From IMG/VR virus record IMGVR_UViG_2547132281_000013, positions 1-21,103 of that record: a DNA stretch of 21,103 nucleotides. One strand, 5' to 3'. The notes beneath the pieces are model-generated. The model did not search any database. It was not told where the DNA came from and saw only the letters and a program-made list of their open reading frames with translations. The DNA comes from a virus (taxonomy: Duplodnaviria > Heunggongvirae > Uroviricota > Caudoviricetes). Positions 4,795 to 7,074 of the stretch are shown piece after piece. The translations under genes were made by a program, and so were the position numbers. Every line of letters begins with the position of its first letter. Within the stretch, counting starts at the first letter, position 1.

Positions 4795-4930
4795 TTTGCT
4801 GCTCCTCATCATATCGACCCTGCAAGGCCGATTAGTTTCTCCACAAAACAGAGAAGAACACCTGCGGTGGCAGCCGCCCGGATGGATTGGGTTATGAGCC
4901 CGTCGTCCGGTGATGCTCTTCTCTGTTTTG

Positions 4931-4977
4931 TAAAAAGAGCGGTACCAGCCGGAAGCAAGGGTACAAACTGGTACCGC
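4931..4977 (-). terminator. tL-like hairpin followed by a T-run on the minus strand
   Basis: 10-bp perfect inverted repeat GCGGTACCAG / CTGGTACCGC (4939-4948 and 4968-4977) with a 19-nt loop. On the minus transcript it is followed immediately by UCUUUUUA. Confidence 0.35.
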
Positions 4978-5194
4978 CAGGACTACACACAGCATAAAGT
5001 TGTGGTGCCGGGTGCCTCCCGGTGCCTGGCGAAGGTTGCACACCAGACGGGTGGGTATCCACAGAAGGTCGACTGTCAGCCTCAACCTTAACCCGCGTGC
5101 GCTGAGCCGCATTCACCACAACGCTAAGGATTCTCTCTGGTTGAAAATACTTAGCTGTTATGTGCCTGCTTTTAGCCACATCAGGCGAGGTGGA

Positions 5195-5248
5195 CCTGGT
5201 TATTCCCCAACAACAAGGATTCGGTTAATCTGGTTATCCCCAACAACG
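5195..5248 (+). repeat. imperfect direct repeat (CTGGTTAT[T]CCCCAACAAC, two copies) just upstream of ORF 5263
   Basis: Copies at about 5195-5215 and 5230-5248, ending 15 bp before the RBS (AAGGAAAAG) of the 144-aa ORF. Confidence 0.4.
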
Positions 5249-5262
5249 CAAAAGGAAAAGAA

Positions 5263-5697
5263 ATGTCCGGTAATATCTACACGCTGTACAAATCCCACTG
5301 TGAAAATGTTGGAAAGTATCGGGGCATTGAAATCAGTGGGGTAGTGTCATCAGTCGAAATAAGCAGAGTGGAATCAAGGGCAACATTACTTACTCTTCTG
5401 GACCTTGTCTTACATGAGCACCGGAAGAAATTCGGCACTCCCTATAATCAGTTGAATGGGAAAAAGGCTCTGGTTCACCTTATTCTGATGAAGCATCACT
5501 GGATGCCAAAACAGATTAATGAGATGAAATTCGATGAACTTCTTCTTTCAATTCAGGATGAACTCACACTTGATAAAATAAGCGTAACCGCCCAGAAATT
5601 TTTAGATTATCGAGACTGGAGATCACAAATTCATCACTTTGATGATTTTGACGAAAATGAATGGGAGCCTAATTTGTCTGCACAATATCTAAAGTAA
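5263..5697 (+). CDS. hypothetical protein, 144 aa; moron-like gene antisense to the leftward early operon
   Basis: ATG with AAGGAAAAG RBS. No transmembrane segment and no recognised domain. Its 3' end overlaps the convergent small ORF at 5669-5875 by 29 bp. Confidence 0.45.
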   Translation: MSGNIYTLYKSHCENVGKYRGIEISGVVSSVEISRVESRATLLTLLDLVLHEHRKKFGTPYNQLNGKKALVHLILMKHHWMPKQINEMKFDELLLSIQDELTLDKISVTAQKFLDYRDWRSQIHHFDDFDENEWEPNLSAQYLK

Positions 5698-5875
5698 CAT
5701 CCTGTGATAAAACCGTGATTTCCTGATCCAGTTTTTTTAAGGAGTCTATTGTTTCCTGTCGATAAGACAGCACTTCACGAAGCTGGTTTATAGCTGCCAG
5801 CTTCTTTGTCATCCACTCGTAAATTTCCTCATTTGTGTATCCGGGCGCGACGATTTTTGGTTCTTTTTTGTGCAT
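5669..5875 (-). CDS. small hypothetical protein, 68 aa; first gene of the leftward (PL-like) operon
   Basis: The ORF track begins at a TTG, but the likely start is the ATG at 5875 (MHKKEPKIV...), which has GAGGAGG 7 nt upstream. Not Arg-rich, so not an obvious N-type antiterminator. Confidence 0.4.
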   Translation of the reverse strand: MHKKEPKIVAPGYTNEEIYEWMTKKLAAINQLREVLSYRQETIDSLKKLDQEITVLSQDVTLDIVQTN

Positions 5876-5935
5876 TTCACACCTCCTCAAGTTATCAGTT
5901 ACTTGTTGATGGGGACCAGATTGTTAAAGAGCTAA

Positions 5936-5956
5936 GCGCCCGAAAGGGCGTTTTTT
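5936..5956 (+). terminator. putative rho-independent terminator on the plus strand
   Basis: GCGCCC-GAAA-GGGCG followed by TTTTTT. Confidence 0.4.
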
Positions 5957-6025: not shown

Positions 6026-6062
6026 TGTTTCGTTTGGGTACATTATGTATCTCAAGGGTACA
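6026..6062. promoter_or_regulatory. OL-like operator pair
   Basis: TGTTT-N7-GTACA (6026-6042) and TGTAT-N7-GTACA (6046-6062). The GGGTACATT motif occurs twice. Same half-site family as the cI/cro intergenic operators. Confidence 0.45.
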
Positions 6063-6073
6063 TTGTCAAGTAT

Positions 6074-6096
6074 AAAAAAACCTGCCGAAGCAGGTT
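6074..6096 (-). terminator. rho-independent terminator downstream of the repressor gene
   Basis: Minus-strand stem AACCTGC-TTCG-GCAGGTT followed by a run of seven T; lies 13 bp past the cI stop. Confidence 0.5.
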
Positions 6097-6108
6097 CATA
6101 GACATTGA

Positions 6109-6783
6109 TTAGGCTTTGATTTTGTATCTTCTTGGTTTTCCTGAGAAAATCACTGTACCAATTATAGAGCAATTACCGTTGATCTTAATGTAAGGCTCAG
6201 GCCAATTTGGGTTTAACGCTTTGAGATAACGCTGTGTCCCATCTTCTATCAACCTTTTGAAGGTGGTTTCACCTGTATCGTGCATCAATGCAATAACATC
6301 GTCACCGTGGCAGGCAGGTACTTCAGGATCGACAAAAATCATGTCTCCCGGGCGGTACTCATCAATCATTGAATCACCTATCACCCGCAAGATATAAGTC
6401 ATTTCCCCACAGGGTACAGGGCAGGGATACGTTTCTGCTGTGCTCAAATCAACCTCAGAATATCCAACTTCTTTCCATGCTCCGGCCTGTACCCATGATA
6501 TGACAGGGACTAATGTGATTTGTTTATTAGTGATTGAAACATCAGGTTTTTTTGTGATGTTCGTTGTCTGGTGTTCTTGATCGAGCCATCCGATAGGCAG
6601 GTCGAAACATTTTTCGATGTGTCGTGCCATGCTGTCACCGATATTTTTAGTAGCACCATCTCCCATAAACCTGCTGGTCTGGGTTGGCTCGCGATCAATC
6701 ATAGTGGCAAAGGAAGAATTCCCGCCAACACCATCTCTCAGTTTTCTGGCGTTAGACCGCCGGATGTCATGGATTGTTTTCAT
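6109..6783 (-). CDS. cI: CI-like prophage repressor (N-terminal HTH, C-terminal S24 LexA-type autopeptidase)
   Basis: 224 aa. The C-terminal domain carries the S24 catalytic Ser (RVIGDSM) and a downstream Lys (TTFKRL). Divergent from a Cro-like gene across an operator-bearing intergenic region. Confidence 0.85.
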   Translation of the reverse strand: MKTIHDIRRSNARKLRDGVGGNSSFATMIDREPTQTSRFMGDGATKNIGDSMARHIEKCFDLPIGWLDQEHQTTNITKKPDVSITNKQITLVPVISWVQAGAWKEVGYSEVDLSTAETYPCPVPCGEMTYILRVIGDSMIDEYRPGDMIFVDPEVPACHGDDVIALMHDTGETTFKRLIEDGTQRYLKALNPNWPEPYIKINGNCSIIGTVIFSGKPRRYKIKA

Positions 6784-6873
6784 AACGAAATTAAAACCCT
6801 TGTACCGTTAAGGTACAAGTGTCTTGAAGGTTCATTTCAATCATGTAATATGTACACCGGAGGTACATATTGT
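6784..6873. promoter_or_regulatory. divergent immunity control region (OR/PR/PRM-like)
   Basis: Two dyad operators TGTAC-N7-GTACA at 6801-6817 (within the 21-bp palindrome CTTGTACCGTTAAGGTACAAG) and 6851-6867. Candidate rightward promoter: -35 TTGAAG (6824-6829), 16-bp spacer, -10 TAATAT (6846-6851). The second operator overlaps the -10 and the start site. Confidence 0.55.
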
Positions 6874-7074
6874 ATGAAAGCGTATTGGGACTCTTTAACC
6901 AAAGAACAGCAGGGCGAGTTGGCCGGAAAAGTTGGCTCAACACCTGGCTACTTACGGCTGGTTTTCAATGGCTATAAAAAAGCCAGTTTTGTGCTGGCTA
7001 AAAAACTTGAGCAATGCACGTCAGGTGCAATTACGAAATCTGACTTAAGACCGGATATCTATCCGAAAGATTAG
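6874..7074 (+). CDS. cro: Cro-like HTH regulator
   Basis: 66 aa from the ATG at 6874, with GGAGG 10 nt upstream. The longer ORF-track frame (6571-) runs antisense into cI and is rejected. Confidence 0.6.
   Translation: MKAYWDSLTKEQQGELAGKVGSTPGYLRLVFNGYKKASFVLAKKLEQCTSGAITKSDLRPDIYPKD

Follow-up and report, generated by a model that had tools for sequence, protein, structure and literature searches.

The closest described systems are the sieB regions of phages P22 and lambda, in which, reportedly following Ranade and Poteete in 1993, the sieB promoter is overlapped by an antisense RNA named sas. Reviews report that in P22 the sas antisense RNA switches translation within sieB, and an RNA-seq study gives the length of the P22 sas RNA as 127 nt, together with its sequence (PMC13397905, Table 2). 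It is in P22 only that a discrete antisense RNA of this kind, produced in lytic growth, has been shown. The P22 record NC_002371 carries a ‘sieB: promoter’ annotation at 29690–29720 and a ‘sieB RNA start site’ at 29727. Here we analyse a pair of direct repeats from another lambdoid prophage and put at roughly 0.65 the probability that they belong to a module of this known kind, comprising a sieB-type promoter and a sas-type antisense RNA.

The window, by which we mean the whole stretch of 21,103 nt that was analysed, is an SfIV/SfV/CPS-53-like lambdoid prophage. Its landmarks around the repeats are the following.

Ending at about 4794, minus strand: yfdP-like gene.
5263–5697, plus strand: cassette gene (ORF 5263) of 144 aa, with the RefSeq name ‘ECs1072 family phage-associated protein’, matching phrog_5286.
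5669–5875, minus strand: second cassette gene, of 68 aa, convergent with ORF 5263 and matching phrog_1744; first ORF of the pL transcript.
5934–5953, plus strand: terminator hairpin and T run, at the end of the plus-strand cassette transcript.
6042–6069, minus strand: pL-like promoter, TTGACA-16-CATAAT, overlapped by CI-operator-like ATGTAC..GTACAT repeats.
6109–6783, minus strand: cI repressor gene.

Downstream of cI there is a terminator, followed by the pL-like promoter (read from 6069 to 6042), whose operator pattern recurs in the OR region and which is the presumed source of an antisense transcript. Because cI and pL lie on the minus strand, upstream of the antisense side of ORF 5263, this ORF is antisense to the pL operon. 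The same context, a gene antisense to the pL operon and near the repressor, was found at five other loci from different genera. ORF 5263 gave no Pfam match at E ≤ 0.1 and no PADLOC match, and for neither cassette gene, ORF 5263 or the 68-aa ORF, was an informative protein-family match obtained. A reading of ORF 5263 as sieB with an in-frame esc start was rejected, given the lack of a Pfam match and the assignment to phrog_5286 instead.

The two repeats lie immediately upstream of ORF 5263. Copy 1 (CCTGGTTATTCCCCAACAACA) occupies 5195–5215 and copy 2 (TCTGGTTATCCCCAACAACG) occupies 5229–5248, a start-to-start distance of 34 nt; they differ by one 1-nt indel (TTATT versus TTAT) and at their first and last bases. 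The original prediction had placed copy 1 correctly and had started copy 2 one base late, at 5230. A Shine–Dalgarno region, AAGGAAAAG, begins 3 nt past copy 2, and the ATG of the ORF stands at 5263. Among local direct repeats with copies no more than 100 nt apart, this pair has the top score in the 21-kb window, 17 against a maximum of 16 in simulations, with none of 100 Markov-1 simulated windows reaching 17. The 21-kb window holds no further direct copy of the motif; a single inverted, degenerate copy is present at 5905–5925, and a degenerate third unit lies at 5108–5141.

The repeat pair is not a chance occurrence, and in this the original prediction was borne out, both by the score and by wide conservation; it is mainly conservation, as stronger evidence than the simulated windows, that rules chance out. 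We fetched 119 IMG/VR loci with the same left flank and then carried out a motif-anchored scan and a species-level genome scan. Across 66 distinct left blocks, the core TCCCCAACAAC, present twice, is near-invariant, and TTCCCCAACAAC ... ATCCCCAACAAC is conserved at ≥ 95% in each column. The motif occurs in genomes with 14 genus names of Enterobacterales, and the repeat pair in 1448 of 5426 complete E. coli genomes; in 12 of 12 E. coli records sampled from these 1448 it is unannotated. The module adjoins a LexA/S24-type repressor in every context examined, and all but four of the sequence contexts of the motif are the same slot beside the repressor, the other four looking like chance matches within unrelated sequence. 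It is scarcely credible that the repeats are a neutral relic, left over from a tandem duplication and without a function of their own. Although the degenerate third unit shows that duplication did occur in the region, the repeat is near-invariant across the 14 genus names while its flanks diverge wholly, and different module families, described below, keep matched pairs.

The features of the module that enter the comparison with P22 and lambda are these.

5164–5193, minus strand: conserved 3′ domain of a putative sas-like RNA, with two interleaved stems; 85% identical to P22.
5195–5218, minus strand: copy 1 and predicted hairpin B of the sas-like RNA, CCUUGUUGUU-GGGG-AAUAACCAGG, from RNAalifold and pair counts.
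5203–5208, plus strand: predicted −35, TTCCCC, inside copy 1; aligned to TACCCC in the sieB promoter annotated in P22.
5226–5231, plus strand: predicted −10, TAATCT (TAnnnT); aligned to TAAACT in the sieB promoter of P22 and lambda.
5229–5248, plus strand: copy 2, with a predicted transcription start at about 5237 (±1); also the left arm of an inverted repeat that flanks the cassette.

A blastn search with a consensus of the block of about 85 nt matched lambda at 34397–34464 and P22 at 29653–29720 (78–80% over 69 nt), and the window, P22 and lambda align colinearly, with 70–72% identity over 87 aligned columns. All three share the same order of elements, namely TGCCTG(T)CTTTTA.CCAC.TCAGGC..GGTGG, a first C-rich motif, a spacer, TAA(A/T)CT and a second copy of the motif. 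Identity to P22 is 85% in the GCCTG..GGTGG part and only 61% in the repeat-containing part. In P22 and lambda the places of copies 1 and 2 are taken by a different matched pair, two copies of ACCCCTACAG with a spacing of about 34 nt. P22 reads TACCCC-TACAGCGAGAAATCGGA-TAAACT-CTATTC-A(+1)CCCCTACAG, and the window reads TTCCCC-AACAACAAGGATTCGGT-TAATCT-GGTTAT-CCCCAACAAC.

The likeness to the sieB–sas system of P22 and lambda therefore extends over the colinear block, the predicted −35/−10 geometry with a direct repeat at the predicted −35 and +1, the GCCTG..CAGGC / CCAC..GTGG tail and the place in the genome, antisense to the pL operon near the repressor. The two systems differ in the repeat itself, which is CCCCTACAG in P22 and lambda and CCCCAACAAC in the window phage, and in what lies downstream, sieB/esc in the former and one of at least 21 unrelated cassettes in the module family of the window. 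Furthermore, unlike P22 and lambda, the window phage has no N/gene-24 homologue between the cassette and pL, and its cassette is abutted by a boxA and an inverted copy of the motif, whereas P22 and lambda are without such an arm.

The pattern T(T/A)CCCC-N17-TAA(T/A)CT is common to the window, P22 and lambda. In the 66 left blocks TTCCCC is invariant and the 17-nt spacer to the −10 is fixed, its length being kept while the sequence of its 3′ half is free to vary. At the −10 position, TATTAT stands in one cassette type (C), despite a different neighbouring sequence, and a perfect TATAAT with a 16-nt spacer in another (D) and in locus L124. In the alignment, T5237 of the window stands opposite the annotated start of the P22 sieB RNA, which is the A preceding CCCCTACAG, so that transcription in the window phage is predicted to start at about 5237 (±1). 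Copy 1 would then overlap the −35, and CCCCAACAAC of copy 2 is predicted to form the first 10–11 nt of the ORF-5263 mRNA. The C/A-rich leader ends 3–6 nt ahead of each cassette’s own ribosome-binding site. A generic promoter scan left this plus-strand promoter uncalled, and the predicted −35, TTCCCC, fits the consensus at 3 of 6 positions; the promoter is recognised only because of its conservation and its homology to P22.

On the opposite strand, the published sas sequence matches the P22 block exactly in reverse complement, spanning the sieB AUG, copy 2, the −10 and copy 1 and ending about 18 nt past GCCTG. Since the window block is homologous to that of P22, it would be a homologue of the sas gene, probably read from pL. 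With ends carried over from P22 sas, we infer for the window phage a sas-like RNA of approximate extent 5150–5268 on the minus strand.

A minus-strand alignment of 18 diverse sequences (the module family of the window, P22, lambda and two further repeat families) was folded using RNAalifold, which returned a hairpin enclosing copy 1 in reverse complement as well as the GCCUG/CAGGC stem. In the window, the hairpin reads CCU-UGUUGUU-GGGG-AAUAAC-AGG on the minus strand (plus-strand 5195–5218), its GGGG loop being the plus-strand CCCC at 5205–5208. Compensatory changes occur in 6–7 of its 9 pairs across the 18 sequences. The proportion of paired cells is 95.6%, compared with 86.6% in shuffles (0 of 500 reaching the observed value) and 25–44% in slid-partner controls. 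Canonical pairs in this hairpin make up 93.8% on the minus strand and 84.6% on the plus strand, which pairs less well because 22 G–U pairs turn into A–C mismatches. These figures are good evidence for a minus-strand RNA structure enclosing copy 1.

The 3′ domain is common to all module classes. Its first stem pairs GCCTG (5164–5168) with CAGGC (5182–5186) and its second pairs CCAC (5176–5179) with GTGG (5190–5193); locus L133 carries compensatory changes here, GCCTT/AAGGC and CCGC/GCGG. A local hairpin around copy 2 has a predicted energy of −16 to −18 kcal/mol in the P22 family and is weak, at −4 to −9 kcal/mol, in the module family of the window, for which reason two equivalent recognition hairpins are not established. 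Base-pairing within its hairpin makes copy 1 harder to use as a second site for recognising the target. The pL leader did not fold more stably than shuffled sequences.

A scan anchored on the conserved tail revealed further matched pairs, TTCCACAGTCAA, CCCCAATGCAA and CCCCCACAA, each present twice. Adding CCCCTACAG and CCCCAACAAC, there are at least five module families with different, internally matched pairs at the same positions. In a second class of module (SfV, e14 and others) the tail is kept and the repeat part is replaced by a single covarying hairpin. Together, the matched repeat families and the covarying hairpin offer comparative support for a sas-type RNA. Repressors vary between phages with an identical repeat, and cassettes vary within one repeat family.

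These observations bear on the nature of the site. The original prediction had read the repeats as the binding site of a regulator or as an iteron-like element; the part that stands is their place in the control region of ORF 5263, and neither an iteron nor a protein-regulator site found support. An iteron was rejected, as the motif has no more than two direct copies within the 21 kb, both in the immunity region left of cI and away from the replication genes; the replication gene annotated in SfIV, a near-identical phage, is on the far side of cro. We consider it quite unlikely that a host or phage DNA-binding regulator occupies the two direct copies, near −35 and +1, with the inverted arm as a possible further site. 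Such positions are typical of operators, the core is strongly conserved and a third, inverted copy could permit DNA looping, yet at least five families have different matched repeats, with no co-varying regulator gene noticed in an unsystematic look, and a spacing of 34 nt fits neither response-regulator repeats nor iterons. The copy-1 stem, moreover, has compensatory changes and a G–U bias typical of RNA. A dedicated DNA-binding protein is also unlikely because a single family holds different cassettes and a single repeat occurs with different repressors in different phages. The CI operators are unrelated to the repeat: those of this phage (ATGTACCC..GATACAT, CTTGTACC..GGTACAAG and ATGTAC..GTACAT) are unlike CCCCAACAAC, and a CI/Cro operator was rejected. 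Other candidate resemblances were partial or not conserved across cassette types and were likewise set aside, namely a DnaA box, a LexA box, sigma-32, sigma-54 and sigma-E promoters, a linker sequence like a CsrA site (ACAAGGAU) and a C/A-rich GcvB target.

The right-hand boundary of the module coincides with a mosaic junction. Megablast homology to related phages stops either at 5193, just before copy 1 (SfV, SfII), or at 5247, at the end of copy 2 (PhiR29 group). Among the 1448 E. coli genomes that carry the module, only 476 match ≥ 80% of a query that extends 15 nt past 5247, and the partial E. coli matches that were sampled end at 5247. Between the shared left flank and the pL region, the IMG/VR loci fall into many unrelated types; those with the repeat all diverge right after CCCCAACAAC, and k-mer clustering yielded at least 21 cassette families after CAAC, bracketed by the module. 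As the finding that would speak against it, the original prediction had named loss of the motif where the ORF is conserved; the opposite is seen, with the motif kept and the ORF swapped among at least 21 cassettes. None of the cassettes tested matched a known defence family.

Between the left module and a conserved right block of inverted arm, boxA and terminator lies a slot for the exchange of cassettes. In its fixed position, variable cargo and expression from the prophage, this slot resembles the accessory and defence hotspots of temperate phages (lambda rexAB/sieB, P2/P4; PMC9122126); it differs from them in having as flanks a defined promoter-leader/antisense module and a boxA–terminator block, with a base-sharp junction.

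Mosaic breakpoints falling exactly at the motif could also be taken to mean that the repeats are primarily recombination ends, either terminal inverted repeats of a transposase-less cassette or crossover sites, with regulation secondary. This account is very unlikely in our judgement. It would fit the occurrence of one cassette with different left flanks and of one flank with many cassettes, the inverted arms flanking every cassette, and the GTTAA shared in register by the 9 bp on either side. However, the motif keeps to its one slot by the repressor in all but four contexts, no transposase or recombinase is associated with it, there is no clear target-site duplication, and IMG/VR holds no empty site with arms ≤ 30 nt apart; the block is, besides, already accounted for, being homologous to a promoter and an antisense RNA that have been mapped. 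The arms are loosely like what we take to be the ends of IS10 (CTG..ATCCCC). IS10-like ends with a 9-bp target duplication were rejected, the resemblance being loose, with no copies elsewhere and no clean duplication.

Two features define the right-hand side of the slot.

5905–5925, plus strand: right arm, the inverted motif GTTGATGGGGACCAGATTGTT (reverse complement AACAATCTGGTCCCCATCAAC).
5921–5932, minus strand: boxA-like GCTCTTTAACAA in the pL transcript, an exact match that overlaps the outer end of the right arm.

A right arm is present at the right end of 21 of 21 cassette families of the window module. It is directly followed by GTTAAAGAGC and then by the terminator, and at loci with another terminator the arm keeps its GTTAAAGAGC. 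The pL RNA reads GCUCUUUAACAAUCUGG at this point, which is an exact GCTCTTTAACAA; the putative pL transcript thus contains the boxA consensus, about 105 nt downstream of pL and conserved across genera. This GCTCTTTAACAA is presumably the same as the core of the E. coli rrn boxA, and the P22 nutL sequence contains GCTCTTTAAC. A second boxA in the pR transcript (6890–6901) has two mismatches and is at chance level. No significant right arm was found in P22, lambda or the other repeat families, and since these have the direct repeat without the arm, the arm does not explain the direct repeat.

The arms are more alike within than between cassette families (permutation p = 1.4e-4, 21 families), which raises a further reading, as a rival or as an addition to the sas-type one, namely that copy 2 is mainly the strand of a long-range RNA helix. 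The right arm of the pL transcript (AAUCUGG...CAAC, 3′ of boxA) would pair with a segment 650 nt downstream, the reverse complement of copy 2, looping out the antisense cassette in the way that the rrn leader and spacer enclose 16S rRNA, with RNase III cleavage or sequestration of the antisense RNA as the outcome. The matching of arms within families holds at p = 1.4e-4 for DNA and 3.6e-4 for minus-strand duplex energy, and multi-base co-changes occur in cassette types C (GTAACCCTC/GAGGGTTAC) and E (GATGACT/AGTCATC). The inverted copy at the right end of all 21 families, its constant abutment on GCTCTTTAACAA even with a differing terminator and the weak local hairpin of copy 2 in the window module family also agree with such a helix. 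We nevertheless regard it as unlikely, because the arms are only 9–20 bp long and 460–850 nt apart, single-base variants (L197, L200 and L112) are uncompensated, and P22, lambda and other families have the direct repeat without a right arm. Assignment of the arms to a strand by duplex energy was discarded; the energies favour the minus strand, yet they do so for mismatched arm pairs too, so that the preference reflects base composition.

The rrn leader, in which a boxB hairpin is followed by boxA and by the 5′ strand of a long-range stem cut by RNase III, offers a parallel. As there, the pL RNA has in order a hairpin, GCUCUUUAACAA and then one strand of a long-range complementary pair, and the pair encloses a long untranslated stretch. 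We take GCUCUUUAACAA to be identical to the E. coli rrn boxA core. In contrast to the rrn leader, the helix of the window is short and only partly compensated, and we treat the resemblance as a lead.

Returning to the sieB-type promoter and sas-type RNA, the observations would fit the following mechanism. On the plus strand, a sigma-70-type promoter, TTCCCC-N17-TAATCT, would drive a cassette mRNA with copy 2 in its leader, and on the minus strand the same DNA would be read from the CI-controlled pL. The antisense RNA would cover the start codon, the ribosome-binding site and the leader and would then continue into a structured tail, in which the reverse complement of copy 1 is predicted to fold into a stable hairpin with a GGGG loop. 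It would in this way carry two copies complementary to the mRNA leader, one as true antisense and one in the hairpin, and the need for two anti-leader copies may be the reason why the repeats match. pL would be expected to fire when the prophage is induced or when a phage carrying the same module superinfects, and the antisense RNA would then shut off or re-route translation of the cassette gene, by analogy with sas. The translational switch of P22 cannot simply be assumed here, because the downstream gene is not sieB/esc.

More tentatively, the module may serve accessory and exclusion genes of prophages as a general ‘plug-in socket’ guarded by antisense RNA, with the repeat families as specificity groups and the arm restraining the antisense RNA; we hold this wider proposal to be possible, at odds clearly below even. 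If it were true, a promoter and a shared 5′ leader would come ready-made for any cassette inserted after CCCCAACAAC, and a phage of the same family firing its pL could silence the cassette in cis or in trans. The families CCCCAACAAC, CCCCTACAG, TTCCACAGTCAA, CCCCAATGCAA and CCCCCACAA would then decide which phages silence which resident exclusion genes, and the boxA-linked arm would process or restrain the antisense RNA and protect pL transcription across the untranslated antisense cassette.

A literature search for the motif strings returned no relevant match, and in the searchable literature we found no description of the repeat pair, of its family-specific matching or of a cassette socket. 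What had been an anonymous repeat can be explained, on the reading preferred here, as part of a promoter/antisense-RNA switch so far known only from P22 and lambda sieB, and apparently reused ahead of at least 21 unrelated cassettes in genomes with 14 Enterobacterales genus names. As a sequence handle, the left block together with the boxA-linked right arm could also be used to harvest accessory genes of prophages, which are candidates for exclusion or defence. The same reading supplies testable rules on how a phage might escape harm from its own cassette.

An Rfam scan at gathering thresholds gave zero matches in the whole window, and at permissive thresholds the only match was a neighbouring STnc100-like one, with none over the repeat. 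This full-model match (RF02076) covers minus-strand 5152–4930, directly 3′ of the putative sas-like RNA, with E = 4.8e-8 and a score of 44.6 bits, below the gathering threshold of 47. The stretch resembles the model of STnc100, a prophage small RNA, and is separate from the repeat. It ends in a terminator, and PGAP calls a frameshifted pseudogene there.

The promoter and overlapping sas-like antisense RNA module exists in at least five families with different matched repeat pairs (loci L216-L300), namely CCCCAACAAC, CCCCTACAG, TTCCACAGTCAA, CCCCAATGCAA and CCCCCACAA. The spacing of these matched pairs is uniform, at about 33-35 nt in all of them. At locus L148, two -10-like hexamers precede copy 2 of the repeat, arising from a 9-bp tandem duplication (CTGTATAAT-CTGTATAAT). 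The elements of the window that surround or form part of this module are as follows.

4930-5152, minus strand: full-length, sub-threshold match to the STnc100 small-RNA family
5164-5193: conserved stems GCCTG/CAGGC and CCAC/GTGG, which interleave with each other
5905-5953: conserved right-hand block, comprising an inverted motif copy, a boxA-like element and a hairpin terminator that includes a T run
6030-6075: pL-like promoter (TTGACA-16-CATAAT) with operator-like repeats
6797-6870: OR region, with the same operator-like pattern as at pL

The 5164-5193 tail is common to every module class, including those of P22, lambda, SfV and e14. Its two stems have a pseudoknot-like arrangement, and locus L133 carries compensatory changes in both of them (GCCTT/AAGGC and CCGC/GCGG). 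A different, SfV/e14-like module class (loci L003, L006, L068, L220, L218, L231 and others) has a single hairpin after a conserved GGTGGTAT, the stems of which covary strongly (CCTTTTA/TAAAAGG, CTTGG/CCAAG, GCTGG/CCAGC and CCTTAAAA/TTTTAAGG). The loop of this hairpin contains a CACACAG or CCCTACAAC-like motif, and the plus-strand gene has its ribosome-binding site within the 3' strand of the hairpin.

The sas-like RNA is directly adjoined on its 3' side by the STnc100-like stretch, which scores 44.6 bits (E = 4.8e-8) against a gathering threshold of 47 and has a U run, preceded by a hairpin (4939-4977), at its end. The same stretch is annotated as a frameshifted pseudogene by the RefSeq pipeline (PGAP); in other genera the left end of the block (CAGGCACACAACATGAAAGCG) coincides with the start of an intact gene on the minus strand. 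Within this stretch lies a third, degenerate repeat unit (5108-5141, ATTCACCACAACGCTAAGGATTCTCTCTGGTT), similar to ATTCCCCAACAAC-AAGGATTCGGTTAATCTGGTT and specific to left flanks of the E. coli type. A long, imperfect inverted repeat at 4843-4931, located between the STnc100-like terminator and the start of yfdP, has 25-nt arms that are 84% complementary and separated by 39 nt.

In the right-hand block, the boxA-like element is on the minus strand, where it matches GCTCTTTAACAA exactly, the sequence of the rrn boxA core. The inverted arm and this element are linked across genera, also where the terminator has been replaced. Further right, the pL-like promoter and OR share the pattern ATGTAC(C)..N5-7..GTACA(T/G), which defines the CI (prophage repressor) operators of the window's immunity type.

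Several of the accessory cassettes that lie between the module and the right-hand block (loci L132, L205, L202 and L210) pair a tiny ORF bearing a conserved N-terminal '..DYEERH..' motif with a protein of about 150 aa (MTRDD(L/M).FD..YSF..EK...) that contains hydrophobic, possibly membrane-spanning stretches. Such a layout is reminiscent of membrane-acting exclusion proteins.
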